Shown here piece after piece: positions 5,209-43,246 of a stretch of 64,000 bases of DNA. The stretch is from an uncultured delta proteobacterium (GTDB lineage Bacteria; Desulfobacterota; Zymogenia; Zymogenales; Zymogenaceae): positions 256,001 through 320,000 of the forward strand of contig CAVTLK010000004.1 in assembly GCA_963735595.1 (NCBI GenBank), in the 5' to 3' direction. The translations under genes and the position numbers were made by a program. Under the pieces are notes generated by a model that searched no databases, had not been told where the DNA came from, and saw nothing but the letters and a program-made list of their open reading frames with translations. The first letter of the stretch is position 1. The number at the start of each line of letters is the position of its first letter.

Positions 5209-5237
5209 ACGGCTATTACCGTTCGAGTTGTGCATAA

Positions 5238-5268
5238 AGTCCCCTGTGCCATGCAGGGGCTTTTTTGT
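5238..5268 (+). terminator. Hairpin plus T-tract between jag and mnmE
   Basis: AAGTCCCCTG-TGCCATG-CAGGGGCTT followed by TTTTG. Confidence 0.55.
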
Positions 5269-5276
5269 TTAGGACC

Positions 5277-6749
5277 ATGAAACAGAAAGAGAACACAATG
5301 ACCGGCGGCGAGACCATCGTCGCAATCGCAACGCCCCCGGGAGAGGGGGGGATCGGGATCGTGCGGCTTTCCGGCCCCCTGGCCCTGGAGATCGGGAAAC
5401 GGCTCTTCCGGTTTGCCCAGGGACCCGACGAGATCGAGTCCCACCGGCTCTACCCGGGTACTGTCGCAGCGCCCCTCGACCCGCCCGGGAGCAGCGGGGA
5501 GACCCCCGGCGGCGCGGCCGGCCTGGGGCGGCACCGGGCGGCCGATGGTGACGACGGTGCGATCGTCGATCGCGCCTTCTTCGCCGTAATGCGGGCACCC
5601 CGTTCCTATACCGGCGAGGATGTGGTCGAGCTTCAATGCCACGGGTCGCCGCTGATGCTGGCGTGGCTTGTGACGGCCGCGGTATCGCTGGGTGCGCGAC
5701 CCGCGCGGCCCGGCGAGTTCACCCAGCGCGGGTTCATGAACGGGAAAATCGACCTCATCCAGGCCGAGGCGGTGGCCGACCTCATTGCCGCCAAGACAAT
5801 CGGCGGCCTTTCGATATTTTCACGGCACCTTATGGGGGGGCTTTCCGGGGGCCTTTCAGAGCTACGGGCCCGCCTTATTTCTCTCCTTGCCGACATCGAG
5901 GCAGCCGTCGACTTTTCGGACCAGGAAATCGACCCGCCCGCGATGGAGGCGCTCTCCCGGGATATTGAGGTATCGCGCGATTCGGTCGACCGGCTGCTCG
6001 GGTCGTACCGGGTGGGCAGAATCTACCGGGAGGGCGCGCAGCTGGTCATCGCGGGACGCCCCAACGTGGGAAAATCAAGCCTGCTCAACCGTCTCGTCGG
6101 CCGCCCGCGGGCCATCGTCGCACCCGAGCCGGGGACAACCACCGACACGATCGAGGATATCATGGATATCGGCGGGGTTCCGGTCAGGGTCGTGGACACG
6201 TGTGGGCTTCGGGAGGCGTCGGGGGCAGTCGAACGGGAGGGGGTGGAGCGGACGCGGTTGGCCCTGGATACGGCCGACATGATACTGCTGGTCGCCGAGG
6301 CGGCAGGAGATCTCGGGCCCGAAGAACGCGACGTTATCGAAACGGCGACACGGGCCTGCCGCCCGGTGGTGCTGGTGATGAACAAGGTCGATCTCGTTGA
6401 CGGAGACATTCCCGCGCCGCCGGACACGGCGGCGCGGGCCGTTTTCACGTCGGCGCTGACGGGAACCGGCCTCGGGGATCTGAAGGATGTTATCCATTCC
6501 CTGGTTGTCGTCGGCGCGGGCCGCGGCGGCCGGGACGAGATGATCACCAGCGCGAGGCACTACGCGGCGCTCATCTCGGTCCAGAAATCCCTCCAGGAGG
6601 CGCACCGGGGGGCGGCCGGGGGCGTTTCGCCGGAATTTATCGCCCTGGATATTCGCGGCGCCCTTTCGGCCCTCGGGGAGCTGATGGGAGACGTGACCAC
6701 GGAGGAGGTCCTCGAAGCGATTTTTTCCCGTTTCTGCGTCGGGAAATAG
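5277..6749 (+). CDS. mnmE: tRNA modification GTPase MnmE/TrmE
   Basis: TIVAIATPPGEGGIGIVRLSG, GRPNVGKSS, NKVD and C-terminal FCVGK. Confidence 0.97.
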   Translation: MKQKENTMTGGETIVAIATPPGEGGIGIVRLSGPLALEIGKRLFRFAQGPDEIESHRLYPGTVAAPLDPPGSSGETPGGAAGLGRHRAADGDDGAIVDRAFFAVMRAPRSYTGEDVVELQCHGSPLMLAWLVTAAVSLGARPARPGEFTQRGFMNGKIDLIQAEAVADLIAAKTIGGLSIFSRHLMGGLSGGLSELRARLISLLADIEAAVDFSDQEIDPPAMEALSRDIEVSRDSVDRLLGSYRVGRIYREGAQLVIAGRPNVGKSSLLNRLVGRPRAIVAPEPGTTTDTIEDIMDIGGVPVRVVDTCGLREASGAVEREGVERTRLALDTADMILLVAEAAGDLGPEERDVIETATRACRPVVLVMNKVDLVDGDIPAPPDTAARAVFTSALTGTGLGDLKDVIHSLVVVGAGRGGRDEMITSARHYAALISVQKSLQEAHRGAAGGVSPEFIALDIRGALSALGELMGDVTTEEVLEAIFSRFCVGK

Positions 6750-6796
6750 CGTTCGACGGCCGTACCGGCATACCGGCGCCCGAGTTCACGGCAGAA

Positions 6797-6812
6797 TGTT
6801 TCACGTGGAACG
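6797..6812. promoter_or_regulatory. parS site 1 (imperfect)
   Basis: TGTTTCACGTGGAACG, near the parS consensus. Confidence 0.85.
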
Positions 6813-6830
6813 GATGAACCGCGGCGGCCT

Positions 6831-6846
6831 TGTTTCACGTGAAACA
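6831..6846. promoter_or_regulatory. parS site 2 (perfect palindrome)
   Basis: TGTTTCACGTGAAACA directly upstream of parA. Confidence 0.95.
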
Positions 6847-6961
6847 TACGAAGAAATCTGCCGGACGGGACGCGGCTTTTTGATCATTCGTTACATTTTG
6901 TCCTTTTTTAAAAAATGCAGGTATGCTATAGTTCTCTGGGCTTTCGCGAGGGAACAGGGTA

Positions 6962-7738
6962 ATGGCGGCCAAAATCATCTGCATCGCAAACCAGAAAGGG
7001 GGAGTCGGCAAGACCACCACCGCCGTAAACCTTTCCGCGTCGCTGGCGGCGGCCGAAAAACCCACCCTCGTCATAGATGCCGACCCACAGGCCAACGCAG
7101 GCAGCGGACTGGGGGTCGATAAGAACACGATCAAGCAGAGCATCTACCAGGTCATCATTGACCAGATACCGCTATCAAAGATATTGATAAAACCCCAGAA
7201 ACAGCTCCCGTTTTTATCACTGGCGCCCGCCAACACGGATCTAATCGGCGCCGAAGTCGAGTTGATCGGGGCGCTGGCCCGGGAGACGAAGCTCAAAAAG
7301 GCGATTGAAGAGGTCATGGACCAGTTTTCCTACATTCTCATCGATTGCCCCCCGTCCCTCGGCCTCCTGACGGTCAATTCGCTGACCTGCGCCCACAGCG
7401 TGATCGTGCCGCTCCAGTGCGAGTATTTCGCGATGGAGGGGTTGGGCCAGCTCCTCTCGACCATCAGCATCATCAAGAAGAACCTCAATAAGGAACTGGC
7501 GATCGAGGGGATACTCCTGACGATGTTCGACATGCGTAACAATCTCTCCCACCAGGTTCAGGAGGAAGTGACCACGCATTTCAAGAACGAGGTCTTTTCG
7601 ACCGTCATACCGCGCAACGTGCGCCTCTCGGAGTGTTCGAGCTTCGGTCTGCCTATAATCCTCTACGACATAGACTCCAAGGGCGCGCAGAGCTATCTCG
7701 ATCTGGCCCAGGAGATCATCAAGCGGGAGCCCACATGA
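6962..7738 (+). CDS. parA: Chromosome partitioning ATPase ParA/Soj
   Basis: NQKGGVGKTT deviant Walker A, DADPQAN, DCPPSLG. Confidence 0.97.
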   Translation: MAAKIICIANQKGGVGKTTTAVNLSASLAAAEKPTLVIDADPQANAGSGLGVDKNTIKQSIYQVIIDQIPLSKILIKPQKQLPFLSLAPANTDLIGAEVELIGALARETKLKKAIEEVMDQFSYILIDCPPSLGLLTVNSLTCAHSVIVPLQCEYFAMEGLGQLLSTISIIKKNLNKELAIEGILLTMFDMRNNLSHQVQEEVTTHFKNEVFSTVIPRNVRLSECSSFGLPIILYDIDSKGAQSYLDLAQEIIKREPT

Positions 7739-8586
7739 GCAAGAGAAAAGTCCTCGGCAAGGGGCTCTCCGCCCTGATTCCGGACGCCGCCGTGACTGCC
7801 GACGGGGCGGGTGGAAACCTCGCCTCCATCACCATCGATGAAATTTCTCCGAACCGCTTTCAGCCCCGAAGGGATTTCGATGACGTAAAGATCGAGGAAC
7901 TGGCCGCCTCCATCCGGGAGAAGGGCATCATCCAGCCGCTCATCGTCCGGGAGACCGAAGAAGGGTATGAACTGATAGCCGGGGAGCGCCGCCTGCGCGC
8001 GGCCAAGCTGGCGGGCCTGGCCTCGGTCCCCGCAGTCATCCGGGACGTCACCGACGGGGAGGCGCTGGAGCTGGCCCTCATCGAGAATATCCAGCGGGAA
8101 AACCTCAACCCCATCGAGGAGGCCCAGGCCTATCAACGGCTCATCGAGGAATTCTCCCTGACTCAGGAAGAGATGGGCCAGAAGGTGGGGAGGGACCGCA
8201 CCACGATTACCAACAGCCTGCGATTGTTGACGTTGCCGGCGATCGTGCGCAACGATCTGGCCGCCGGCGACCTGACCTCCGGCCACGGCAGGGCGCTGCT
8301 GGGCCTGGGCGTCGAGCGCCAGATCCTGATCGCCCGGGATAAATTCATCGCCAAGGGGATGTCGGTCCGTGAGGCGGAGGCCTATGTCAAGCGGATCAAG
8401 GAGGGGGAAGGCGCGGAAAAGGAAAAGCCCGCGATCGACCCGGCGATCCTCGATATCGAGGAGGACCTTACCCGCACCCTCGGCACAAAAGTCAGGATCG
8501 TTACCAAGGGGGCGGGCGGCTCGATCGTGATCGAGTACTACTCTGAACAGGAGTTGGACCGGCTGGCGGAAATCCTCCGTCCCTGA
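7735..8586 (+). CDS. parB: Chromosome partitioning protein ParB/Spo0J
   Basis: LGKGLSALI, GERRLRA, ENIQRENLN; ATGA overlap with parA stop. Confidence 0.97.
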   Translation: MSKRKVLGKGLSALIPDAAVTADGAGGNLASITIDEISPNRFQPRRDFDDVKIEELAASIREKGIIQPLIVRETEEGYELIAGERRLRAAKLAGLASVPAVIRDVTDGEALELALIENIQRENLNPIEEAQAYQRLIEEFSLTQEEMGQKVGRDRTTITNSLRLLTLPAIVRNDLAAGDLTSGHGRALLGLGVERQILIARDKFIAKGMSVREAEAYVKRIKEGEGAEKEKPAIDPAILDIEEDLTRTLGTKVRIVTKGAGGSIVIEYYSEQELDRLAEILRP

Positions 8587-8672
8587 ACGGAGCGCCGGGG
8601 GCCCCGTATGAACTGTCTCACAGTAACGGGTTTTGGTAGACCCGGTTATAAATCAAGAATAAAGGTGAAACA

Positions 8673-9152
8673 ATGTTTGGAAAACTAAAGATGATCGGCG
8701 GCAAAGCGCCGGAGCATTTTGACAGGACGGCCGACCTCAACGCGTTTCTGGGGATTGGCACGGAATTCGAGGGCAAGCTTACGTTTACCGGCACCGTCCG
8801 GGTGGAGGGGAAACTGAAGGGCAGGGTCTTCGCCAAGGACGTCCTTATCATCGGAAATAACGGCTTCGTCGACGGCGAGATAGAGGTTGACACCATCATC
8901 ATCGACGGGACCGTCAAGGGCACTATCCGGGCTGCCAATAAGCTCATCATCGCGCCCACCGGCCGATTCTACGGAAACGTCGAGACGCCTACCTTTATCA
9001 TTGAGGACGGGGGAGTCTTCGAGGGGAGCTGCCGTATGGAGGAGATCAAGGAGATGCTCTCAACCACGAAGTTTACCTCCGCCGATAAAGAGAGCGGGCA
9101 CACGTTGATCAAAATCGTCGACAGAAAGGCGAACGGAGGAACACTCAACTAA
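8673..9152 (+). CDS. Bactofilin (polymer-forming cytoskeletal protein)
   Basis: GTEFEGKLTFTGTVRVEG...IEDGGVFEGSC beta-helix pattern. Confidence 0.9.
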   Translation: MFGKLKMIGGKAPEHFDRTADLNAFLGIGTEFEGKLTFTGTVRVEGKLKGRVFAKDVLIIGNNGFVDGEIEVDTIIIDGTVKGTIRAANKLIIAPTGRFYGNVETPTFIIEDGGVFEGSCRMEEIKEMLSTTKFTSADKESGHTLIKIVDRKANGGTLN

Positions 9153-9280
9153 ATAGGGACGGCAACGCTCTGCCGGTCAGGATTTCGCTTTACTCCCCCT
9201 GTTACCGTTACCGAGGATCGCCGGCGGGCTGCCGGCGGGATGATAGCGACCCCTGAGAGACTCCAACGACGCCCCAAATG

Positions 9281-9350
9281 AAAATCCCGTCCGATTACCC
9301 ATCATTGAACCGGCTCCTACAATCCCGCCAATCGGACGGGATTTTTATTT
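9281..9350. repeat. Perfect 16-bp inverted repeat with 33-nt loop and T-tract (terminator-like)
   Basis: AAAATCCCGTCCGATT (9281-9296) / AATCGGACGGGATTTT (9330-9345). Confidence 0.7.
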
Positions 9351-9355
9351 TTCCC

Positions 9356-9412
9356 TTGACAGAAAAAATACCCTGTGATAAATTCCACGGTGTTGAATGA
9401 ATAATCATTCAT
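9356..9412 (+). promoter_or_regulatory. Probable atp promoter with Rex-like (9373-9390) and FadR/TetR-like (9393-9412) palindromes
   Basis: TTGACA at 9356; CTGTGATAAATTCCACGG; TTGAATGAATAATCATTCAT. Confidence 0.6.
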
Positions 9413-9527
9413 TCGACTCGATTGGTTCATCGAATCGAATTAACCGCCGCCCCGGCAACGGCCGGGTGGAGACGGAAGCGGCGGGGCGAGCTACATCTGA
9501 TTCAGACAATACCGGAGCGGTGCAGCC

Positions 9528-9953
9528 GTGCTTAACATAGACGCAACATTCTTCATCCAGGTAATCAACTTCCTTATTCTCATTGCCGTCCTCAACTGGC
9601 TGTTAGTCAAGCCGACCCTGAGGGTACTTGAGGAACGCAGGGTGCGTGTCGAGGGTTCCGAAGAAGAGGCCCGGCGCCTGACGGCCGAGGCCGACAAGAA
9701 TATAGAGGAATATGAGCGGGGCCTGGCCGAGGCCCGGATTGAAGCCGGCAAACAAAAGGAACGTATCAGGGCCGAGGGCTTAGAGCGGGAAAACGAGATA
9801 ATCAGGGCCGCCCGCGAGCAATCCCGAAAAACCGTGGAAGACATGAAGCAAAGGATAGAGAAGGAGGCGCACGAGGCCTCTTCGGTGATGAAGAACGAGG
9901 TTAAGGCCCTCTCGGCCCAGATCGCCGAGAAGGTGCTGGGGAGGTCGATATAG
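9528..9953 (+). CDS. atpF2: ATP synthase F0 subunit b'
   Basis: TFFIQVINFLILIAVLNWLLVKP..ER plus coiled coil. Confidence 0.9.
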   Translation: MLNIDATFFIQVINFLILIAVLNWLLVKPTLRVLEERRVRVEGSEEEARRLTAEADKNIEEYERGLAEARIEAGKQKERIRAEGLERENEIIRAAREQSRKTVEDMKQRIEKEAHEASSVMKNEVKALSAQIAEKVLGRSI

Positions 9954-9957
9954 TCGT

Positions 9958-10578
9958 ATGGCTCCTTCAGTATCAAAGCGAAAGATTTCCCCGGTCCTCG
10001 TCGTGATGATCATCATCTCCTGCCTGGCGATCGGCGTCGCCGTCGTCGTGACGCTTGCCGCGCAGGGTGTAATTTCGCTCACGCTGCCGGGCGAAACGGC
10101 GCGGTTGCAGGACCTGGTCTGGCGGATCGCCAACTTCAGCGTACTTATTATCATACTCCATGTCACATTAACGCGGCGCGCCGTTACCTTCTTTTCCGAC
10201 CGGAAGAAGGCCATCCGGGAGGCCCTTGAAGACGCGGTGAAGGCCCGGCGGGAGGCGCAGAAGAAATACGAGGAAGTCAATAAGCTCCTCAAGAAGGCCA
10301 AGGAAGAGATGGAGGAAATACATTTCTCGTTTAACGCCGAGGGCCAGAGAGAGCGCGACCGGATAATTAAAAACGCCGAACGGGAGGCCGATAAAATCAA
10401 GAAACAGGCCGAGCATACGGCGGTCCAGGAGGTCAGGAAAGCGCGGTTTGCGCTCAGGGCCGAGGCCGTGGACCTGGCGGTCTCGATGGCCGAAGAGATC
10501 CTTACCAAGAAGATCACCAAGGACGATCAGAAAAAGATCACCCAGGACTTCATTGAAAAGGCGTCGGAAGCCAAATGA
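9958..10578 (+). CDS. atpF: ATP synthase F0 subunit b
   Basis: WRIANF TM, coiled coil, operon position. Confidence 0.88.
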   Translation: MAPSVSKRKISPVLVVMIIISCLAIGVAVVVTLAAQGVISLTLPGETARLQDLVWRIANFSVLIIILHVTLTRRAVTFFSDRKKAIREALEDAVKARREAQKKYEEVNKLLKKAKEEMEEIHFSFNAEGQRERDRIIKNAEREADKIKKQAEHTAVQEVRKARFALRAEAVDLAVSMAEEILTKKITKDDQKKITQDFIEKASEAK

Positions 10579-11126
10579 TACACGAAACGATTGCACGAAA
10601 GTATGCGCGGGCCCTCATCGAGCTGGCGCTGGAAGATAAACAGCAGGTACGATGCGGACGCGAGATCGAATCGTTCGCTATTCTCATCAGGGAAAACGAG
10701 CAGCTGTGGGGGCTCTTCACGGGGCCTGCCGGAGATACGGAACTCAGGCGCTCCGCGCTGGATGCCGTCCTTTCAAAAACGCAGTACCTCGGGGTTGTGG
10801 CGAATTTTATCCGCCTCTTGATGGATAAAGAGCGCCTGGTCCTTATCACCGACATTTCCCGTGCGTACGGCCGGCTCCTGGATGATCATGAAGGCAAGAT
10901 GAAGGCACGGCTGGTGAGCGCGGCTCCACTTTCGGATGGGGAGACGGCCGAGATCACGAAACGACTGTCTGCCTCGCTCAAACGGGAGATAATCCTGGAG
11001 ACCTCGGTTGATCCATCGCTCATCGGCGGGGCGGTCGCCTACGTCGGGGGGCTCATATTTGACGGAAGTATACGTACGCAGTTGAGCACTATTCGCGATA
11101 ACCTTAAGAAGGGGCATATAAGCTGA
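10575..11126 (+). CDS. atpH: ATP synthase F1 subunit delta
   Basis: [25 protein letters not shown]. Confidence 0.95.
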
Positions 11127-11127
11127 A

Positions 11128-12636
11128 ATGGAAATCAGGGCTGAAGAGATAAGCAGTATACTTAAGAGGCAGATAAAGGAATACGAGAAGCGCCTCGAGA
11201 TCAGCGAGACCGGGACCATCCTCTACGTGGGCGACGGCATCGCCCGTATCTACGGCCTCGAAAAGGCAATGGCCGGGGAGCTTCTGGAGTTTCCCGGAGA
11301 GATCTACGGGATGGTTCTGAACCTCGAGGAGGATAACGTCGGCTCGGCCATCTTCGGCGAGGATTGGCACATCAAGGAGGGCGACGTCGTCAAGCGGACG
11401 GGCCGTATCGCCGAGGTGCCGGTCGGGGAAGCGCTGCTGGGCCGGGTTGTTAACGCCCTCGGCCAGCCGATCGACGGGAAGGGCCCCATCGAGACCAAGG
11501 AGTATCGCCCCATCGAGGTCAAGGCCCCCGGTATCGTCTACCGCCAGCCGGTCAAGGAGCCCCTCCAGACCGGGATCAAGGCCATCGATTCCATGACCCC
11601 CATCGGCAGGGGCCAGCGGGAGCTTATCATCGGCGACCGGCAGACCGGCAAGACGTCCATCGCGCTGGATACCATCATCAACCAGCGGGAGAATGACGTC
11701 ATCTCGATCTATGTCGCGATCGGCCAGAAACGCTCCACGGTGGCGCGGGTCGTGGATACCCTCAATAAGTTCGGGGCCCTGGAAAAGACCATCGTCGTGG
11801 CGGCATCGGCCGCCGAGCCCGCGCCGATGCAGTACATCGCTCCCTACTCGGGCGTCACCTTTGGGGAGTATTTCCGGGACAACGGCAAGCACGCGCTCGT
11901 CGTCTACGATGACCTCAGCAAGCACGCGGTGGCCTACCGGCAGCTTTCGCTGCTGCTTCGGCGGCCGCCGGGACGCGAGGCCTATCCGGGCGACGTATTC
12001 TACCTCCACTCGCGGCTCCTGGAGCGTGCGGCCAAGCTGTCGGACGACAAGGGCGGCGGGTCGCTGACAGCGCTACCGATCATCGAGACCCAGGCGGGCG
12101 ACGTTTCGGCTTATATCCCCACGAACGTCATCTCCATTACCGACGGGCAGATCTTTCTCGAGTCCGACCTGTTCTACTCTGGCGTTCGGCCGGCCATCAA
12201 CGTGGGACTGTCGGTCTCGCGGGTCGGCGGAAAGGCCCAGATCAAGGGCATGAAGCAGGTTGCGGGCTCGCTCCGGCTGGATCTCGCCCAGTATCGCGAG
12301 ATGGCCGCCTTTGCGCAGTTCGGCTCCGACCTCGATAGGGCGACCCAGGCACAGCTTGCCCGGGGCAGCCGCCTCGTCGAGATCCTCAAGCAGCCCCAGT
12401 ATCAGCCGCTCCCGGTCGAAAAGCAGGTTCTCATTATCTACGCCGCGACCAGGGGATTTGTGGACCAATACCCGGAGGGGGCGCTCAGGAAATATGAACA
12501 GGAGCTCTACACGTTCTTCGAGTCCAAGTACGCCCACATACTCGAAGAGATCAAGCAAAAGGGGACTATCTCGACCGATCTCGAGCGGCAGGTCACCAAG
12601 GCGCTCGATGATTTCAAGGAGCATTTCGTTATATAA
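11128..12636 (+). CDS. atpA: ATP synthase F1 subunit alpha
   Basis: [29 protein letters not shown]. Confidence 0.99.
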
Positions 12637-12651
12637 CGGCAAGGGACGGGC

Positions 12652-13512
12652 ATGGCAAACCTGAAGGAAATACGCAAACGGATACAGTCCGTCAAGAATA
12701 CGCAGCAGATCACGAGCGCCATGAAAATGGTGGCCGCGGCAAAGCTCAAGAAGGCCCAGGAGCGTATCGAGAAGGCACGGCCCTATGCCGAGAAGATGGG
12801 CGACGTCCTGGCGAGCCTCGCGCTGAGGACCCACGAGAAGGCGCACCCGCTGCTGGTACGCCGGGAGGTCAAGAACGTCGCGCTGGTCGTGGTCAGCTCC
12901 GACCGCGGGCTCTGCGGCGCGTTCAACCAGAACATTATTAAAACGGCCGAGCAGTTCATCCGGCAAAACCGCTCGCGTTATTCGGAAATTCTCTTTACGA
13001 TGATCGGCAAGAAGGGATACGATTATTTTAAGATACGCCCGATCACCATCCAACGGGAGTATCTCAATATAACCGGTAAACTCTCCTACGAGCTTGCCCA
13101 GTCGATCGCCGACAACCTCCGCGAGCTTTTCCTCTCCGCAAACGTAGATGAGGTGTATATCCTCTATAACCGGTTCAAGACGACCATCAGTCAGGAGCTC
13201 GTCTTCACGAGGATCTTGCCGATCACCCCGCTGGAAGCGGCGGAAGGCCAGACGGTGCCCGGATACGTCTTTGAGCCGTCCGATGAGGACGTCCTGGAGG
13301 ATATCATCAGGAAGAACCTCGAAGTGCAGATCTTCCGGGCGCTGCTGGAATCCGAGGCGTCCGAGTTTGGGGCGCGGATGACGGCGATGGACAGCGCCAC
13401 CTCCAATGCCGGGGAAATGATCAAGAAACTCACGCTCAAGTATAACCGGGCACGGCAGGAGACCATTACCAAGGAGCTCATGGAGATTATCGCCGGCGCC
13501 GAGGCCCTGTAG
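12652..13512 (+). CDS. atpG: ATP synthase F1 subunit gamma
   Basis: ITSAMKMVAAAK, DRGLCG, RQETITKEL. Confidence 0.99.
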   Translation: MANLKEIRKRIQSVKNTQQITSAMKMVAAAKLKKAQERIEKARPYAEKMGDVLASLALRTHEKAHPLLVRREVKNVALVVVSSDRGLCGAFNQNIIKTAEQFIRQNRSRYSEILFTMIGKKGYDYFKIRPITIQREYLNITGKLSYELAQSIADNLRELFLSANVDEVYILYNRFKTTISQELVFTRILPITPLEAAEGQTVPGYVFEPSDEDVLEDIIRKNLEVQIFRALLESEASEFGARMTAMDSATSNAGEMIKKLTLKYNRARQETITKELMEIIAGAEAL

Positions 13513-13646
13513 GGCACGATACCGATGCGGAACGAATCCGCAAAGAGGTTATGAGGGAAGTCGCGGAATATAATAGTAGAATTATCGTATATTCGGACGC
13601 GAAAACGCGCCGTAGTTATAGCGGAACCGAAAACGAATGCGGTTAG

Positions 13647-15080
<1,434 letters not shown>

Positions 15081-15101
15081 CGCGGGACGAACGAAGGAGT
15101 C

Positions 15102-15518
15102 ATGCTCATGGGATTTGCCCTTGAAATTGTCACCCCCGACCGGCTGGTTATCAGCGACGAGGTTGAAAAGGTCGTCTGCCCCGGCGCAGAGGGGGAATTC
15201 GGTGTCCTGCCGAACCATGTCCCGCTCATCACGAAGATGAAGATTGGGGAGGTTCGGTATATTGACTCGACCATGAAAAACGAGCATATCCTCGTGGTTA
15301 CCGGGGGGTACGTGGAAGTGACCGATCAGAAGGTCATCGTCCTTGCCGACCAGTGCATCAGGGCGCGGGACATCGACAAGGTCCAGGAGGAGCTCAACCT
15401 TCAGAAATCCGAGGAAATCCTCAAGGCGGCCGAGAAGAACACCGACGAATACCGCAACGCAAAAAGGACCAATGACCTGGCCAAGGCGCAGCTCAAGGTC
15501 CTGGAAAAAACCGGGTAG
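15102..15518 (+). CDS. atpC: ATP synthase F1 subunit epsilon
   Basis: LEIVTPD, GEFGVLPNH. Confidence 0.96.
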   Translation: MLMGFALEIVTPDRLVISDEVEKVVCPGAEGEFGVLPNHVPLITKMKIGEVRYIDSTMKNEHILVVTGGYVEVTDQKVIVLADQCIRARDIDKVQEELNLQKSEEILKAAEKNTDEYRNAKRTNDLAKAQLKVLEKTG

Positions 15519-29321: not shown

Positions 29322-29465
29322 TTTGGCGTCATTGCGGGGGAATCCGATTCTGTTACGGAAATGAGTCAAAAGGGGACTTTACTCTTTTCCTTCTTGTTTA
29401 CAGGAAACCGGCGGGGTGCTATATTCCCGGTCATGGAAACGGTGCGGACCGTACAGGAAGGACGA

Positions 29466-30338
29466 ATGAATAAAAGGCACATATCCGTGGTGATTACCGA
29501 CCTGGACAACACCCTGTTCGACTGGTTCGGGATCTGGTACCGGTGCTTTCGGCCGATGCTGGGCGAGATCGTGAGGATAAGCGGCGTGCCGGAGGAGACG
29601 ATCATCGGGGAGATACAAGCGGTCCACCGGAAATACGGGACCACGGAATACGCGTTCCTCATCGAGGAGCTCCCGTCGGTCAGGCAGCGGCACCCCGGCG
29701 GGAACATACCCGAGATCTACGCGAGCGCCATCGAGGCCTACCGGGAAAACCGGCGGCGGCACCTGAGGCTCTACCCCACGGTGATGGAGACGCTCGCCGC
29801 GATAAAGGAGGCGGGCTGCCTGCTGGTGGCCTACACGGAATCGGTGGAATTCTACACGAATTACCGGGTCAGGAAGCTCGGGCTGGACGGCGTGATCGAT
29901 ATCGTCTATTCCCCGAAAGACCACGAGGTGCCGGAGGGCTTCGCGCGCGCCTACCCGCCGGAGGCCTACGCGTTTGCCCGGACGGTGCAGCGGCACACGC
30001 CCGAAAACGAATACAAGCCCAACCCGGAGGTCCTGCTGGGCATCATCGGCGACATCGGCGCCCCGAAGGACGAGGTGCTCTACGTGGGCGACAGCCTGGC
30101 CAAGGACGTGCTGATGGCCCGGGCCGCCGGCGTGCTGGACGTGTTCGCCGCGTACGGCCGGGCGCAGGAACGGGAGGTGTATGACCTGCTGGCGCGCGTC
30201 ACCCACTGGACGGCGGAGATGGTCGAGAGGGAACGGTCCGTCGGCGCGAAAGACGTTGCGCCGAGCATTACGCTGGCGGGGGAATTCGCCGAGATACGCG
30301 AGCACGTCGATTTCGCGGGGTTTGGGGGGAGGGGGTGA
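29466..30338 (+). CDS. HAD-superfamily hydrolase
   Basis: DLDNTL motif I, KPNP, YVGDSLAKD motif IV. Confidence 0.9.
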   Translation: MNKRHISVVITDLDNTLFDWFGIWYRCFRPMLGEIVRISGVPEETIIGEIQAVHRKYGTTEYAFLIEELPSVRQRHPGGNIPEIYASAIEAYRENRRRHLRLYPTVMETLAAIKEAGCLLVAYTESVEFYTNYRVRKLGLDGVIDIVYSPKDHEVPEGFARAYPPEAYAFARTVQRHTPENEYKPNPEVLLGIIGDIGAPKDEVLYVGDSLAKDVLMARAAGVLDVFAAYGRAQEREVYDLLARVTHWTAEMVERERSVGAKDVAPSITLAGEFAEIREHVDFAGFGGRG

Positions 30339-30564
30339 GGGCTCCCGCTCGATTCACCGTCATTGCGAGGAGGCCCCGACGGGGCGTGGCAATCCCCTGA
30401 CTGTCACCGGGAGTCGTGTAAGTGTTTCTATTTGCTTAAGTAAGCTTGTAAGGCTTCAAACTTAGCAAAGTTAATCTGGGGGATAGAAAAGGAGGCGTGG
30501 GTTTACGATTCCGCGGTTGTCAGGAGTGTAGACCTGACCTTATGGGCCTTACAATTGAGGGGGG

Positions 30565-31513
30565 TTATGTTACCTTTTTGATTGAATTTCTTCTATCCGC
30601 TTTAGACAGTTCATCAACATATCCGACTGTTTCAGAAAGTCCCGGTCTATAATTCGTTGGATGCGCACATTCATTTCTCTTGCTTAAAAGGCCATGGATT
30701 GAATTCATTTCTGATTTTGAAAATACTTTTATTTCACGTAACATTATTATGATTGCATGCTCAGTTACATTTTCTCTCAAATCATCTATATTTTCTATCT
30801 TCAATTTTGATAAGTTCTCTTTGTCGGCAATAATTTTCTTTATTCCATAAGCAGTCAATTGGTCTCCCAGGTAATCCATAAATCCTATCCAGGCAACAAC
30901 GTGTGCCGCACCAAAAATCCCATTTTCAATGCATACTTGAGCCTGTCTAAACAACTCACTTTGCTGATCAGAGAGCTTATTGCCTTGCTTTTTAGTATCA
31001 TCTGAGATCGTTTTAGCTTCAACTTTATTTTCACTTTTCTTAGGAACTGTTGCTTCCTGTTTTTTTTCTTCACTTTTCGGTTTATCACCAAAATCGGCTA
31101 AAGAGCACAAATATAAAAATGTTCTTTTAGCTTTAGTAATATCTTCACCTTCCAAGGATGAATTTTCTCGGAAATAATCGGCTAATTCTAATTTACTTTT
31201 CGTATGTGCGTCCGGGAATTTTGCAAACAATTCTTGATAGTTCTTTTTTATTGCTTTTGCCAAAGCCTTTTTAGGGCTCTTCGAAGATTTATATCCAATC
31301 CAAACGGAAGTAGGTTTTTTAGCGTCATCAATAAAACCTGTGAATTTAAGTATTTGAAACATACCCGAGCTGATCTTCATTATCCAAATCAAGAAAATTA
31401 AACCACGCACCATTTACCTCTTTCGGGACATCTACTTTCCTTATTTCCGACATTAGTTTATTAAGTTTATTAAGTTTCCCCACTGATTCAATATACGGAA
31501 ATGTTTCACTCAT
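30565..31513 (-). CDS. AT-rich DUF5343-like N-domain fused to a HEPN-like C-domain; one frameshift near 31365
   Basis: Manual start MSETFPYIESVGKL at 31513 joins MFQILKFTGFID after removing one base; RNECAH motif. Confidence 0.65.
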
Positions 31514-31819
31514 TATTCACCTGGAGGTTGTCTTAGTTCTTAGGACAGGGAACAGGGGTTTAAAAGTGGGAGACTGCTCTGTGTTAAGGTTCATGCCGTA
31601 GCCTGTTTCTGCGATTCTATGCCGTGGTAAACCATAGTCGGGTCTTTCTGTAAAAAGTTGTTACGTCAAATACCCCGGTTAGCCAGAAGGATAAATCCAT
31701 ACTAAACAAGTGTCAAGCATTTTTCGATAAGGAAATCTATCTGTATGAATAGAGTGGAAGAATGTATTAAGAGTTCTCTTTATACCAGTCTCGGGCGTCG
31801 TATACAGCACAAACCACAC

Positions 31820-32005
31820 TCGTCGTTGCGAGGGAGTGAAACGACCGCGGCAATCTCATCACCGTCGGAGACAATAAGGAGTTAATGGCCTTTGGCAACT
31901 GAGAGATTGCCGCGTCGGGCTTTCGCCCTCCTCGCAATGACGGGATGGGTACTCGGTGAAAGTCAGAAAGGTTGCTTCGTCACTTCCCTCCTCGCAATGA
32001 CGGAG
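31820..32005. repeat. GTCATTGCG-family REP-like units
   Basis: GTCGTTGCGAGGGAG..GCAATC; GATTGCC..CCTCGCAATGAC and a second CCTCGCAATGAC. Confidence 0.8.
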
Positions 32006-37690: not shown

Positions 37691-38401
37691 GGGTAGGGAT
37701 ACTACGTATCACCCGTACGTGTATCTAACACGGTACGGTTTAGCACCCGTAGGGGCGGCAACTCTCAACCCTGTCGCCATTGGCGACGATTATTATTGTC
37801 ATTGCGAGCCCACGAAGTGGGCGTGGCAAACACCGCCCGTTTTGAGTTTACCTCACTTCACCGTCATTGCGGGGGCCCGAAAGGGGGCGCGGCAAACAGC
37901 GCCCGTTTTGCGTTTACGCCACTTCACCGTCATTGCGAGCGGCCGTTCTACACTTCGGCTGTCATTGCGAGGAGCGTAGCGACGTGGCAATCCCCTCACT
38001 GTCACCGTAGACCGATCGCGTCATTGCGACGGCGCGGCAGCGCCCGTGGCAAACACCGCCCGTTTTGCGTTTACCTCACTTCACCGTCATTGCGGGGGCC
38101 CAAAGGGGGCGCGGCAAATCACCCCCCGAAGCGATGGGTGCCACCGACAAGCAAGGCTTGTCGGTGTCCCTCCCGGCACGGGCAACCTGGCGGTTAGCCC
38201 GTGGCACCCGGCCCGCCGGTTTATACTCTTGATTCCACCGTCATTGCGAGCCGCCGCCCGACACTTCGGCTGTCATTGCGAGGAGGCCCGAGCGGGCCGA
38301 CGTGGCAATCCCCTGACTACGTCCCGTAAACGCCGTTAAACCGCACGTCTTTCCTCCGTTGTATGGGGATTGCTTCGGTCGTTTCACTCCCTCGCAATGA
38401 C
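37690..38401. repeat. Dense array of GTCATTGCG-family palindromic units
   Basis: GTCATTGCG at 37798, 37863, 37929, 37961, 38020, 38086, 38240 and 38272; inverted copy at 38393. Confidence 0.92.
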
Positions 38402-38464
38402 GGTTGGAACGCCGTATCCCTCCCTTTCCTCCCCTCCCTTCCATTCATAAATTCGTTATCGCCC

Positions 38465-38500
38465 CCCGCCCTGCCGTACGATGGTCGGGCGGGTTTTTTT
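38465..38500 (+). terminator. Intrinsic terminator-like hairpin just upstream of the Zn-finger gene
   Basis: CCCGCCC..GGGCGGG followed by a T7 tract. Confidence 0.6.
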
Positions 38501-38516
38501 ATTTTGGGGGACGACT

Positions 38517-39113
38517 ATGACGTTTGATTCGCGTCGGGGTGGATACGTCTCGTTTGCCGCCGTCAAGGCGGCGACCGGCCTCACCGACCTGGTGCTCGAA
38601 TGCGGCGTGGAGATAAGCCGGTCGGGGATGGCGCTCTGCCCCTTCCACGACGACTGGCGGCCGTCGCTCTCGATCCGGGGGGAGCGCTGGCACTGCTTCG
38701 GGTGCGGAGCGCACGGGGACGTGTTTGACTGGTGCGAGCGCTTCCACCGGATGGACACGGGCGGGGCGCTCCGGTACCTGGCGGCGCGGGCCGGGTTCGC
38801 GCGCGTTTCGTCCGGGGGGGCGGCGGCCCCCGTGCCCACGCCGGAGGAGGCGGCCGCGCGAAGGCGGAGGGAGCTGCGGGACCGCTTCTTTTCGTGGATG
38901 CACGACGGGCGGGGCAAAAACGCCGAGCTCATCCGGCGGCTGGATAGCATCATCGGCGCTTTAATCAAGACGCCGGAGGACCTCGCCACGGAGACGGCGG
39001 AGTATCTGTATGACAAACGGACGCGGGCCGAGGGGGCAAAGGAGACGCTGTGGGACCGGGACTGGGAGGTGCTGGCGGAATACTATCGGGAGGAGACGAT
39101 TGGCAAAGTATAG
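38517..39113 (+). CDS. CHC2 (DnaG-type) zinc-finger protein without a TOPRIM domain
   Basis: CPFHDDWRPSLSI..WHCFGCGAHGDVF. Confidence 0.85.
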   Translation: MTFDSRRGGYVSFAAVKAATGLTDLVLECGVEISRSGMALCPFHDDWRPSLSIRGERWHCFGCGAHGDVFDWCERFHRMDTGGALRYLAARAGFARVSSGGAAAPVPTPEEAAARRRRELRDRFFSWMHDGRGKNAELIRRLDSIIGALIKTPEDLATETAEYLYDKRTRAEGAKETLWDRDWEVLAEYYREETIGKV

Positions 39114-40263
39114 GAACCCCTACGGGGATATCGACGTGCGGTTAGAGGTGATCGAGGTGGAGCGGGAGGAGCGGGCGGCGATTGATCATAAACGGCAGGA
39201 ACACGCTGCCGTTGTGTATGAACGGCGGGAGGAGCGGGAGGCGATAGAGAGCGAAGGGGGCGACGCGATCGACGGGCTGATCTCCGCGGACGCGATCCTT
39301 TCGACGGCCTGGCCGGAGCCGCGGTGGGCGGTGCCCGGGCTGCTGCCGGCGGGGCTGACCATCTGCGGGGGCAGGCCCAAGGTCGGCAAGAGCTGGCTGG
39401 GCCTCCAGCTGGCGCTGGCGGTGGCCGGCGGCGGGCAGGTGCTGGACACGCGGGCCAAGGAGGGCAGGGTGCTCGTCCTTGCGCTGGAGGACCCGCCCCG
39501 GAGGCTGAAGGAGCGGATGGACAGGCAGCGCTGGCCCCGGGGCCTGCCGGTGGAAGTCCTGCCGCTGGGCAAATTCCAGGAAAAGGTCGGGGACCTGGGC
39601 CGGGGCGGGGCCGGGCGGCTCGCCGACCAGATGGAGCGCGGGCAGTACCGGCTCGTGGTGATCGATACGTTTTCCCGCGCGTTTGCCGGCGACCAGAACG
39701 ACCACGTGGAGATGACGACGGCGCTCTCCCCCATCCAGGAGATCGCCCAGACGCTCAACACGGCGGTGCTGATCATCGACCATTTGCGCAAAGGCGTGGG
39801 GGGCGACGCGGACGCGGTGGTGGACCTGCTGGGCTCCACGGCGAAAGCGGCACTGTGCGACGCGGTGATGGGGCTCTACCGGGAGCGGGGCAAGACGGCG
39901 GCGCGGCTCCTGGTGACCGGGCGGGATATCGAGGAGCGAAGCCTCGCGCTCACGATGGACTGGCAGACGGGGCTGTGGCGGTGCGAGGGCAGGGCCGACG
40001 CGCTGGAGCTTGCCGGCCGGCAGGCCGAGATCGTGGCGGTGATCCGGGAGATGGGAAATGTAGGAATTATGGAGATTTCAGCCGCCGTCGGCCTTAACAG
40101 GGGCGTCGTCTACCGGACGTGCGCCGAGCTATGCGAGACGGGCGTGCTCGTTAAGGGCGGGACCCGCAGCAGCGGTGTACGGTATACGCTTGCGGATGAT
40201 CCACGGGAAGAGATAGAGGGTGATATAGATACGGGATACGGCGGGTATGCCCTGAAACAGTGA
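39100..40263 (+). CDS. AAA_25/RepA-like (RecA-fold) helicase with C-terminal winged HTH
   Basis: GRPKVGKS Walker A, LALED, LVVIDT Walker B, IIDHLRK; TTG start with GGAGG RBS. Confidence 0.87.
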   Translation: MAKYRNPYGDIDVRLEVIEVEREERAAIDHKRQEHAAVVYERREEREAIESEGGDAIDGLISADAILSTAWPEPRWAVPGLLPAGLTICGGRPKVGKSWLGLQLALAVAGGGQVLDTRAKEGRVLVLALEDPPRRLKERMDRQRWPRGLPVEVLPLGKFQEKVGDLGRGGAGRLADQMERGQYRLVVIDTFSRAFAGDQNDHVEMTTALSPIQEIAQTLNTAVLIIDHLRKGVGGDADAVVDLLGSTAKAALCDAVMGLYRERGKTAARLLVTGRDIEERSLALTMDWQTGLWRCEGRADALELAGRQAEIVAVIREMGNVGIMEISAAVGLNRGVVYRTCAELCETGVLVKGGTRSSGVRYTLADDPREEIEGDIDTGYGGYALKQ

Positions 40264-40421
40264 AACAGTGAAACAGTGAAACAGCGAAACAACCCTGTAT
40301 ATAAGTAGTGGGAGGTGTGTGGGGGGGGTGTTTCACCAGTTTCATCCTTCAAGGGGTCTCTGAAACAACGTAAGTATATAGTATCGTTATAAATACGGAG
40401 TTGTTTCAGTTGTTTCAGGTT
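40253..40421. repeat. Iteron-like cluster, putative origin
   Basis: (TGAAACAG)x4 plus CGAAACAA at 40253-40292; inverted GTTTCA copies near 40330, 40340, 40403 and 40412; direct copy at 40361. Confidence 0.8.
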
Positions 40422-40465
40422 TATATGCCGGGCCGCATGTATGCCGCCCGTCTTGAGGCTTGTAC

Positions 40466-40726
40466 GTGGCAATAAATAGTGTGACCTCTTCCGAACCGCA
40501 CAGGGCCCGGATCGTCGAGGCGCTCGGGCGGATGGGGCCTTCCAGGATCGTGGAGATCGCCGGGGCGGCGGGGATGAGCAACGGGGCCGCCTTCCGGTAC
40601 TGCTACGGGATGTACGAGAAGGGCATCCTCTCGCGGATGACAAACGGCAACGCGCCGGTGCGGTATTGCCTTGCCGACGGCGGTGATTATGGTCATTGCG
40701 AGGAGGGCGTAGCCCGACGTGGCTAA
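40466..40726 (+). CDS. Stand-alone winged-HTH protein, paralog of the helicase C-terminus
   Basis: Aligns without gaps to the helicase C-terminal ~60 aa; 3' end runs into a REP unit. Confidence 0.7.
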   Translation: MAINSVTSSEPHRARIVEALGRMGPSRIVEIAGAAGMSNGAAFRYCYGMYEKGILSRMTNGNAPVRYCLADGGDYGHCEEGVARRG

Positions 40727-40830
40727 GCCTAGCAATGTCGCCTCCGGCGACGATTGCTATTGTCATTGCGAGGAGCAAAGCGACGTGGCAACCTACTGTT
40801 ACCGAGAACGCCCCCCCGTCATTGCGAGGG
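40690..40830. repeat. GTCATTGCG-family units
   Basis: Three GTCATTGCGAGG copies. Confidence 0.85.
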
Positions 40831-41077
40831 CGTTAAACGGAAAACCGAAACGTTTCCCTCGGTGAATAAGGGTCAAACGGGGATTTGGCCCCCTTTCTTG
40901 TTGACCCCCTTTCTTGCTTGGCCTCTTTTATCGACTTTAGTGGTATCGGTCAAAAAAGGCTTAAATGATAATAGATAGTACAGTATTTGTTGCTGGATTT
41001 TCGATCAGTTTTAAGATATAGTCTAGATGCAAGACTAAAAGGCGTTAGCGATATTCACATCAGTTTTCAAGCCGGCC

Positions 41078-41962
41078 ATGAAAAGCACTCAAGCGACATT
41101 TCCAATACAATCATCAAACGCGATTGACCTTAACGATGACGCGTGTCGTATTCTAGTCGGCGATTCGCTTAAGATACTCGGAGAGTTCCCTGACAAAGTG
41201 TTCCAATGTTGTATTACATCTCCACCATATTGGGGTCTTCGGGATTACGGTATTGAAGGGCAGGTTGGCGCCGAGATGGATGTTAATGATTACATCGGGC
41301 ACCTGGTAAAAGTATTCCAAGAAGTTAGGCGAACACTTCGGAATGACGGCACGCTCTGGCTGAATATAGGCGATTCATACACAAGTGGGGGGCGGACTTG
41401 GAGACAGAAAGATTCAAAGAATAAAGGCCGCCAGATGGATTACAGGCCTCCGACGCCAAGAGGGTTGAAACCTAAGGACTTAATTGGCGTTCCATGGAAA
41501 ATTGCTTTCGCCCTTCAAGAAGACGGTTGGTATCTTAGGTCTGATATCATTTGGTATAAGCCGAACTGTCAACCTGAATCTGTCAAGGATCGTCCGACCC
41601 GAGCACACGAATATCTATTCTTGTTTTCAAAGACGGAAAAAGGGTATGTATATAATTATGAGGCTATTCTAGAGTCTACTAAAGAAGGAAATGGTAAGAA
41701 GAACCGAAGGACTGTTTGGGCCATAAATACCAACGGGTTCAAGGGCGACCACTTCGCGGTGTTCCCTCCTTCCCTTGTCGAGCCGTGTATGCTGGCAGGT
41801 TCAAATGAAGGCTCCACAGTTTTAGACCCCTTTTTTGGAACGGGAACTGTTGGCGAAGTAGCAATAAGAAAGAAACGAAAGTGCGTAGGCGTTGAGCTTA
41901 AGCCCGAATATGCCGAAATAGCTATAAAAAGATTGAAATCAGCAACACCGGAATTATTCTGA
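41078..41962 (+). CDS. N4-cytosine-type (beta class) DNA methyltransferase, M.SmaI-like
   Basis: TSPPYWGLRDY motif IV precedes DPFFGTGT motif I; AT-rich. Confidence 0.9.
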   Translation: MKSTQATFPIQSSNAIDLNDDACRILVGDSLKILGEFPDKVFQCCITSPPYWGLRDYGIEGQVGAEMDVNDYIGHLVKVFQEVRRTLRNDGTLWLNIGDSYTSGGRTWRQKDSKNKGRQMDYRPPTPRGLKPKDLIGVPWKIAFALQEDGWYLRSDIIWYKPNCQPESVKDRPTRAHEYLFLFSKTEKGYVYNYEAILESTKEGNGKKNRRTVWAINTNGFKGDHFAVFPPSLVEPCMLAGSNEGSTVLDPFFGTGTVGEVAIRKKRKCVGVELKPEYAEIAIKRLKSATPELF

Positions 41963-42736
41963 GTTACCCACCGGTGAGAATTTCCATTCCGCATGTATAA
42001 TACAGTACTTCTTATCTAAATTTTTTATCTGAAGTTTCCTTTCTGTCCCACCATCAAAGTAAAGAGAGAATTTAAGTTTCCCCTTTTCATAGACATAGCA
42101 ATATCCGGGTTTCGGGAATTGGGAGCTACTATGCATCATTTCGAGTTCCCCTTGCATTGCTTCGAGGAGCAAGTCTTTTGGAATTTCCACTAGTTCATAG
42201 CTCCAGTAAATCGGGGGTTTGTCGAGTAGTCGCAAAACCAGTATTCGGTCATATCCCTTCATATGCTTAAAAAACTGGTTTCTTAGACCTACTAGTTCTT
42301 CTTCCTTATTAGTCCATACACCTTTCCCTAGCTCATGGAACTTAGAGATATGAATATGACTAGCTTTTGTACTTTTCTCGGCCTGGGTCTTTAACGAAAA
42401 ACGTTGCGTACTGATTTCAATATCATGGCCAGGGTTTCCGGTTTCGGCTTTTTTTGCCGGGATATGATTTTCATTAAGGACCGCTACTAGGGCGAATTCA
42501 AATTTATCTTTAGTAAATGGTTCAATTGAGGAACTATGATGACTTCTCAGGGCGTCAGCAAAGGCATTTAGGATATCTTCATTTACGACTAAATCTGATT
42601 TTTCATTCCGAAAAAAGCTGTGATCGCTTGTGAATTGGTCGACCAGTTGATTTATCTTTTTAAGTTGATTTATTGTAAGTTTCAGGAGTTTTTCGCCAAT
42701 GATCCGTATTAAATTATCCTTCTCATTTAGAGCCAT
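41954..42736 (-). CDS. Type II restriction endonuclease, SmaI-like (CCCGGG predicted)
   Basis: NPGHDI, SLKT, ELGKG, LVEIPK.LLLEA, PKPGY and FSLYFDGG.ERKLQIK blocks recalled from R.SmaI; convergent with the MTase. Confidence 0.8.
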   Translation of the reverse strand: MALNEKDNLIRIIGEKLLKLTINQLKKINQLVDQFTSDHSFFRNEKSDLVVNEDILNAFADALRSHHSSSIEPFTKDKFEFALVAVLNENHIPAKKAETGNPGHDIEISTQRFSLKTQAEKSTKASHIHISKFHELGKGVWTNKEEELVGLRNQFFKHMKGYDRILVLRLLDKPPIYWSYELVEIPKDLLLEAMQGELEMMHSSSQFPKPGYCYVYEKGKLKFSLYFDGGTERKLQIKNLDKKYCIIHAEWKFSPVGNSE

Positions 42737-43009
42737 ATATTAACCTCTATGGTAATTAGCTTTCTTTTCGGATTTCTTTATAACATCCTTTTCGAATAGA
42801 CTCAAGGCCGAAGAAGATAATTACAGTCCTATTTAAATGATAGTCTATTACAATCATTTTCTTGTCGTTATACCTCTATTGTTTGTTGGATTGGCCCCCT
42901 CCTCTCTCACCTCGATTCTCTCCCCATAGGGGCCCGACGAGGCCTGTTTTGTGAGGTGTCAGTCGGGCGGCATTAATACCGTCCCTACATTTCGTACACG
43001 GTGACAGTC

Positions 43010-43148
43010 AGAAGGTTGCTTCGGCCCCTAAAGGGGCCTCGCAATGACAATAGTAATCGTCGCCGGAGGCGACATCATTATGCTTTGCCACGTCGGCTAC
43101 GCCTCCTCGCAATGACAGCCGAAGTGTAGGACGGCGGCTCGCAATGAC
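43010..43148. repeat. Inverted REP-like modules closing the island
   Basis: CCTCGCAATGACAATAGTAATCGTCGCCGG; 43085-43148 mirrors 38240-38309. Confidence 0.85.
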
Positions 43149-43246
43149 TGCCAGATCGAGGGAAGGAGTAAAAAGCAAAGGGGGCGCTCCCAAGCGGGAA
43201 GGCCCCCTTTTCCGTAACCGTGCCGGATACCCGGCGTTACCCGGTA

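Follow-up and report, generated by a model that had tools for sequence, protein, structure and literature searches.

A zinc-finger, helicase and iteron module beside a SmaI-family restriction-modification pair in an uncultured delta proteobacterium: a probable satellite remnant in host repeat mosaics

Introduction

Chromosomal islands that phages can induce (PICIs) are recognized, in the part of the SatelliteFinder paper that sets out their core, by genes for integrase, regulation, primase-replicase and capsid morphogenesis or small terminase (PMC10085698). For Staphylococcus aureus pathogenicity islands (SaPIs), the section of PMC9371898 on the origin describes a Rep protein that uses a winged helix at its C-terminus to bind iterons, which face each other over an AT-rich region. 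Here, an insert of ~5.5 kb was analyzed in a 64-kb stretch of DNA (the window, G000:C4:256001-320000) from the 3.63-Mb, 93% complete genome of an uncultured delta proteobacterium of the family Zymogenaceae (G000). It comprises a zinc-finger (ZnF) gene, a helicase gene, a predicted origin of replication (ori), a solo winged helix-turn-helix (wHTH) gene and a restriction-modification (R-M) pair, held between palindromic repeats of the host. A first-pass annotation had listed a CHC2 zinc finger without TOPRIM, an AAA_25 helicase with wHTH, iterons, a solo wHTH and a low-GC R-M pair, all of which were recovered by family and repeat searches. On balance, the insert is probably the stranded, host-adapted right end of a PICI-like satellite, moved and eroded by recombination between host repetitive extragenic palindromes (REPs).

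Comparison with Described Systems

From the PICI core, the window element holds the primase-replicase module with a downstream ori. In the respects outlined for the pri-rep-ori region of PICIs and SaPIs (PMC9371898, PMC10085698), the likeness extends to an initiator-helicase that ends in a winged helix and has a primase-like gene upstream, to iterons placed right downstream and opposed across an AT-rich core, and to adjoining defence cargo. The differences are equally specific: no integrase, regulator, capsid-modifying gene or terS is present, the helicase is RepA/SF4-like (AAA_25) and not SF3 or MCM-like, and the "pri" gene encodes a zinc-binding domain (ZBD) only, the primase catalytic domain being missing.

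No PF00589 or PF00239 match was found on contig C4, and our own integrase profile was empty over 28000-53000; the four PF00589 matches of the 93% complete genome lie on C1, C2 and C5. No transfer RNA (tRNA) gene occurs within the window, and no attachment (att) direct repeats occur at the insert, which is bracketed by host REPs only and has no copy of the tRNA-Arg end nearby. The stretch from the REP mosaic to the ZnF gene holds no open reading frame (ORF) for an alpA, merR or stl-type regulator. A promoter scan stayed at chance level (5 vs 3.5). Capsid morphogenesis and small terminase genes are also missing from the insert, whose five genes are all assigned otherwise. The earlier statement that no integrase, tRNA att site or capsid gene is visible is upheld.

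In the account of minimalist chromosomal islands inducible by phages (PICMIs) in PMC10803314, int, alpA and prim are required. The window element resembles PICMIs in that it has very few genes, one for replication included, carries defence cargo and lacks capsid genes, and differs in having neither int nor alpA. The IncQ plasmid RSF1010 is similar in its iteron origin and in RepA, the closest solved relative of the window helicase (PDB 1g8y, E 2e-13). IncQ plasmids carry a separate RepB primase, a RepC initiator and mob genes, whereas the window has only the RepA-like helicase, to which the predicted origin-binding wHTH is fused. Stand-alone CHC2 proteins of phages (PHROG 11992) are likewise short, with a ZBD plus helices, and their genes overlap a helicase gene (DUF927/Cch, VapE or AAA_25), but they sit in phage contigs or integrase-bearing elements. 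By its defining genes, as far as these are laid out in PMC10085698 and PMC10803314, the window element is not a PICI, a PICMI or an IncQ element. Judged from sequence, its module likely works like a PICI-type replication module and descends from one. Literature searches, with supplements outside their scope, returned no published description of this arrangement.

Replication Module

The ZnF gene (38517..39113, + strand) encodes a 198-aa protein with a stand-alone CHC2 ZBD followed by a helical hairpin. PF01807 spans residues 15-94 (E 5e-13), and the best PHROG is phrog_11992. The AlphaFold model, obtained from a 10-row alignment with pLDDT 80.7, displays the ZBD and then long helices. Among 240 matches to this model in the PDB, only the ZBD of Bacillus primase (1d0q, E 1e-4) lay at E<=0.001, and no TOPRIM was found by fold search of the model. 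Its top viral matches are proteins of 169-190 aa with a like build. Short ZnF proteins (<=300 aa) without TOPRIM occurred in 25 of 80 viral loci, and the gene downstream of the viral ZnF, scanned in 14 cases, was DUF927/Cch (10), VapE (3) or AAA_25 (1). For the stand-alone primase zinc-binding family, 139 of the 150 best profile matches, counted by eye, are <=300 aa long. Fused ZnF-TOPRIM-helicase and Prim-Pol-helicase forms were seen among distant homologs only; a C. difficile plasmid helicase is described with a fused CHC2. According to the relevant passage of PMC2978363, a ZBD is able to act in trans on the catalytic domain of another primase. The ZnF protein, being without a catalytic domain, may serve as a template-recognition adaptor that lends sequence recognition to the primase core of the host or of a helper.

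The helicase gene (39100..40263, + strand) likely starts at the TTG at 39100, which corresponds to the database protein of 387 aa and gives a 14-bp overlap with the ZnF gene. The AAA_25 match is strong (E 3.5e-31), Walker A/B and SF4-type motifs are intact, and the HTH_IclR match at the C-terminal wHTH is weak; the protein is likely an initiator-helicase. A duplicated acidic motif near the N-terminus (39183-39251) is absent from its homologs and from a contig of a soil metagenome run (X1).

Directly past the helicase stop, nine GAAACA hexamers fall within 200 bp, the densest cluster genome-wide, the next best holding three. The predicted ori (40253..40418), delimited by repeat search, consists of five direct iterons with an 8-bp period, inverted copies, one direct copy, an AT-rich core at ~40369-40397 and two further inverted copies. 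At the sequence level, this layout matches that of SaPI origins as described in PMC9371898. As with SaPI Rep, the helicase would use its wHTH to bind the GAAACA iterons, would open the AT core and would load itself. Beyond a GTAG-type REP half (40430..40453, an inverted pair by sequence), the solo wHTH gene (40466..40726, + strand) encodes 86 aa with 37% identity to the helicase C-terminus, of which it is a paralog. This protein, possibly an iteron-binding regulator or a relic, would compete for the iterons; among three matches to it, two are other stand-alone homologs (65-70%).

An Apparently Complete Satellite with a Sister Module

A sister of the module occurs in G007, a genome of the family. 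There, an element of ~10.4 kb on contig C20 (L032:4922-15335, also given as 4847-15335) is inserted at tRNA-Arg(TCT) with a 52-bp duplicate of the tRNA end. It encodes an integrase (PF00589 E 2e-26), zinc-ribbon and Panacea cargo, TerL (phrog_9 E 2e-51), HTH regulators and, in the terS position, a small gene without family match. Its helicase is 51% and its ZnF protein 37-39% identical to those of the window, and both the overlap arrangement and the downstream iterons are alike. The G007 element differs in its integrase, att repeat, HTH regulators, TerL and low GC content at third codon positions (GC3 0.4-0.5); neither an R-M pair nor a solo wHTH was found in it, and its HTH has no tblastn match in G000. 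The G007 satellite appears complete. It has TerL and no recognized capsid gene, and is a poor fit to a PICI or a capsid-forming PICI (cf-PICI).

In a helicase tree of 47 rows, the G007 protein is sister (98/99) to a high-GC clade of 10 (100/99), made up of the window protein, a fragment from G001 and P0122-P0129; the context consisted of 15 locus proteins and of 21 homologs from the 111 others on the list. The same unit is found on phage contig L157, in the order integrase, XRE, ZnF, AAA_25 and direct repeats. Since the ZnF-helicase-iteron unit occurs in both the integrase-bearing G007 satellite and L157, the module, its TOPRIM-less state included, is a satellite part. The G007 satellite and the phage loci also show that the pair and the absence of TOPRIM both have precedents, and TOPRIM loss was rejected as a hallmark of the window element. 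Further afield, distant helicase homologs have a tyrosine integrase at 31 of 79 loci and, among the 35 loci flanked by >=6 kb on either side, at 18. Direct plus inverted iterons lie downstream at 31 of 72 testable loci, compared with a mean of 4.6 (maximum 10) in random windows.

The helicase itself is rare. It is present in three of 10 family genomes, truncated in one, and in six of 401 phylum genomes at E<=1e-20. Searched with the helicase alone, viral contigs held no close relative, and a metagenome contig scan gave one distant match from 193 candidates. No plasmid record held the ZnF-helicase pair; there were five weak matches, the best small one being a Prim-Pol-fused Rep.

Distribution and Relics in Related Genomes

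The insert is flanked on the left by ileS-lspA-lgt and a membrane ORF (end 37690) and on the right by two Cache-domain genes (from 43247). A comparison of relatives for an empty site between the lgt operon and the Cache genes, proposed in the first-pass annotation, gave a uniform answer. The synteny is kept in G001, G002, G003 and G005, to which the comparison is confined as G004 and G006-G008 do not share it, and the block is absent in all four. Where G000 has a gap of 5.56 kb, G001 has ~1.0 kb made up of REPs, G002 has 0.39 kb, G005 0.11 kb and G003 1.75 kb. In G003, the closest relative (94% nucleotide identity in the flanks), which has no helicase, the gap contains REPs and, behind a REP tail shared with G000, a frameshifted low-GC cassette of another kind (XRE plus ImmA/IrrE-like).

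Pieces of the module occur elsewhere. The copy in G001 lies upstream of ileS and is oriented like the downstream copy of G000. Of the helicase it retains the 3' half, which is followed, without intervening REPs, by an ori whose iterons read GCAACC and by the R-M pair also present in G000 (94% and 75-79% aa identity). Local REP-mediated permutation would explain copies on opposite sides of ileS with the same orientation. Broken relics of the solo wHTH were found in REP mosaics adjoining low-GC cargo in two genomes. That of G002, in a noisy assembly, has HAD-AKR on one side and a frameshifted ileS copy on the other; that of G005 comes after AKR. The frameshifted second ileS copy of G002 (L229:3745-6148, on G002:C1) is fused to unrelated fragments and is probably an assembly overlap with C9. 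G000 itself carries a second, gene-less ori at C2:524545-524750 (L241:2046-2251) with GAAACC/T iterons, in another REP mosaic and before two low-GC single-gene cassettes; five relatives have no counterpart. The three oris (window, G001 and C2 orphan) align block by block and differ in iteron sequence, and a model built from them found no fourth in 10 genomes. No integrase was seen beside the traces in G000, G001, G002 and G005.

Metagenome contigs from runs X1 and X2 derive from relatives, in two studies, and their coverage holes prove nothing; X2 covers the solo wHTH and not the R-M genes. No circular joint was present in the contigs of four runs, a result that is uninformative either way as these represent relatives (word shares 0.11, 0.05, 0.00 and 0.00). 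Joints that skip the module have short, REP-derived sides and were excluded from the count.

Host REP Repeats

The repeats at both ends of the insert and in its middle, at the boundary of module and R-M pair, belong to a genome-wide host REP family. Its 11-mer core, GTCATTGCGAG, has 151 genome copies (151-165 by count) in 92 clusters, and the stretches no more than 300 bp from it make up 4.6% of the genome. In the insert, repeats of this family were located at 37772-38403, 40692-40840 and 43000-43150. The left mosaic (37772..38403) holds CGTC-type palindromes, which are not element-specific. The middle cluster (40692..40910) adds a GGGTCA-type inverted repeat, and the right mosaic (42960..43150), identified by sequence and repeat search, combines GTAG and CGTC types; no named subfamily was matched. 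The middle cluster is an imperfect direct repeat of the left REP, so that the G000 module is bracketed by imperfect direct repeats, and it matches the single copy of G003. In the relevant part of PMC3733652, CGTC-type REPs are short intergenic palindromes with a CGTC or TGTC end, present in many copies as dimers or clusters, and the G000 repeats agree with this description. Given their genome-wide spread as REPs, the flanking repeats were rejected both as att sites and as the ends of an element or transposon.

Mosaics of this kind attract other cassettes. Low-GC islets with REPs on both sides number 4 of 143 against 0.36 expected, a comparison in which intergenic position is uncontrolled. Within the window, a low-GC DUF5343 gene, similar to PADLOC PDC-M34A (30360-31990), lies between two REP clusters upstream of ileS and is shared with G003, marking a second cassette hotspot. 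A genus-conserved HAD hydrolase gene (29361-30338; PADLOC "Hydrolase" PDLC03008, E 1e-89) adjoins it.

As described in parts of PMC7058167 and PMC3733652, the Neisseria phage Nf1 integrates at CGTC-type dRS3 repeats via its own IS110 transposase. The present mosaics share with that system palindromic intergenic repeats, the CGTC-type end and the hosting of foreign DNA. They differ in that Nf1 brings an IS110 transposase, of which there is none in the insert or the genome. Neither IS110 (PF02371) nor resolvase (PF00239) gave a match in the 93% complete genome, and both were rejected as a recombinase acting in trans. The tRNA-Arg integrase of the genome was also rejected in this role, as a different large island lies there and no att copy is near the insert. 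That low-GC island (G000:C5:908461-941710) has an intact integrase at tRNA-Arg(TCT) and reaches the contig end; a 49-bp tRNA-end duplicate at C1:1018424-1018472 may be its other att site. Separately, a TerL-like gene and an uncharacterized gene after it (G000:C5:710979-713900) lie in high-GC host context with no further phage genes seen. The genome carries four Y1_Tnp genes and three small GIY-YIG genes, the latter stand-alone and flanked by CGTC-type REPs (G000:C2:850433, C5:408606 and C5:428832). CGTC REPs are, in the section of PMC3733652 concerned, without a dedicated transposase, which makes the three GIY-YIG genes candidate REP-associated enzymes.

Restriction-Modification Pair

The last two genes of the insert are convergent. 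The first (41078..41962, + strand) encodes an N4/N6 DNA methyltransferase (PF01555 E 2e-51) with a TSPPY motif, and the second (41954..42736, - strand) a restriction endonuclease of the SmaI family (PF17411 E 3e-81, 272.7 bits against a cut-off of 27.3; PADLOC REase_II) for which no solved structural relative was found. With a SmaI-family endonuclease and an N4-C-type methyltransferase, the pair belongs to SmaI-family type II systems. The GC content of the two genes, 0.45 and 0.38, contrasts with ~0.62 in flanking genes. The SmaI family is found in two of 10 family genomes, G000 and G001. CCCGGG, a candidate recognition site, is only mildly avoided in G000 (observed/expected 0.84) and does not rank among the 12 palindromes, of 64, with the strongest avoidance. 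Among 6-bp palindromes, avoidance is greatest for GGATCC (observed/expected 0.42), which points to another, older R-M system.

Origin of the Insert

The first-pass annotation offered two explanations, an eroded satellite or a minimal element mobilized in trans. The former is better supported, through the sister helicase in an integrase-bearing tRNA satellite and the relics in three other genomes and G000. In the probable course of events, a high-GC satellite lineage, long adapted to the genus, would have carried the R-M pair beside its ori. Integrase, regulators and packaging genes would then have been lost, leaving a remnant in the host REP mosaic. The piece may have become fixed beside the ileS operon, its loss likely slowed by the R-M pair. 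A switch of sides around ileS, or loss, would have proceeded by REP-REP recombination, either as excision and re-entry or as duplication and loss, with orientation kept. Two independent landings flanking one operon among 92 REP clusters are less likely.

Several observations weigh against a decaying remnant. The G000 genes are intact, with GC3 of 0.79-0.87 compared with 0.86-0.87 in the host, and their comparison with G001 gives dN/dS of 0.21, indicating purifying selection, at a dS of 0.86, within the host-gene range of 0.33-1.1. The three oris keep their layout under diverging iterons, as in active competing replicons, so that each copy probably descends from an active replicon. The helicase variants of run X1 number at least three, and a contig of this run spans the upstream junction of REP and ZnF gene, with no R-M genes covered. 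By our own profile, 17 of the 35 well-flanked distant loci are without a tyrosine integrase. Finally, none of the high-GC clade members with readable context adjoins an integrase, and with a single exception they are located in REP mosaics.

These same observations (kept layout, host-like GC3, purifying selection and the conserved REP-ZnF junction) favour the second explanation, a tentative one to which we give distinctly less credence. Here, ZnF, helicase, ori and solo wHTH would form a genus-specific mini-replicon without integrase, released by REP recombination as a circle of ~2.5 kb and using REP arrays as att sites. The circle would prime through the catalytically empty ZnF adaptor, with host DnaG as its target in trans. 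Re-entry would depend on RecA or on a host HUH or GIY-YIG enzyme, for which the Y1_Tnp and REP-flanked GIY-YIG genes are at hand. The unit would collect and shuttle defence cassettes, travel as naked DNA or inside the particles of a helper phage, and leave gene-less ori offspring, the C2 orphan being a non-autonomous derivative. Of the five genus-level clade traces, four are located in REP mosaics and no trace adjoins an integrase; only a small part of the genome is near a REP. The direct REP repeats around the module, single in G003, would fit excision, and Nf1 at dRS3 offers a precedent, though with its own transposase, in the parts of PMC7058167 and PMC3733652 that treat it. However, the independent sites number only two or three, the traces of G001, G002 and G005 sharing a single orthologous region or its vicinity, and REP mosaics draw foreign cassettes in general. 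Most copies are broken, no IS110 or plasmid record with the pair was found, and the sister lineage has an integrase. Mobilization in trans, as first proposed, keeps some probability through the readable members of the high-GC clade.

An improbable third explanation is that a relic of satellite replication and an R-M pair reached a REP hotspot independently, as unrelated cassettes, their adjacency being without functional meaning. The sharp GC3 break (0.85 vs 0.40), the REP cluster between them in G000, the different cassette behind the same REP tail in G003 and the two metagenome runs that cover the module and not the R-M genes all agree with it. The G001 copy does not, since at that other site the R-M pair comes right after the ori and the helicase end, without a REP in between; nor does the restriction of the SmaI family to these two among 10 family genomes. 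A domesticated module that serves the host, for example by using the ori to amplify ileS-lspA-lgt or the R-M pair locally, is very unlikely: the genes are intact with host-like codon use and both the G000 and G001 copies adjoin the ileS operon, but most family genomes, the closest relative G003 among them, have no helicase.

Conclusions

The traces can be arranged as a decay in steps, from the complete element to an integrase-less module with R-M pair, half a helicase with ori and R-M pair, a lone wHTH and a lone ori. Three aligned oris with different iterons offer a natural series of wHTH-iteron specificity. The stand-alone primase zinc-binding family is large and uncharacterized, and the compact module provides a clean system in which to ask about redirection of a host primase in trans. 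Should REP recombination really make the unit hop, the replicon would be mobile while encoding no recombinase of its own. As a relic, it illustrates stepwise satellite decay and the collecting and shuffling of defence cassettes by REP mosaics in an uncultured lineage, which is useful rather than surprising.

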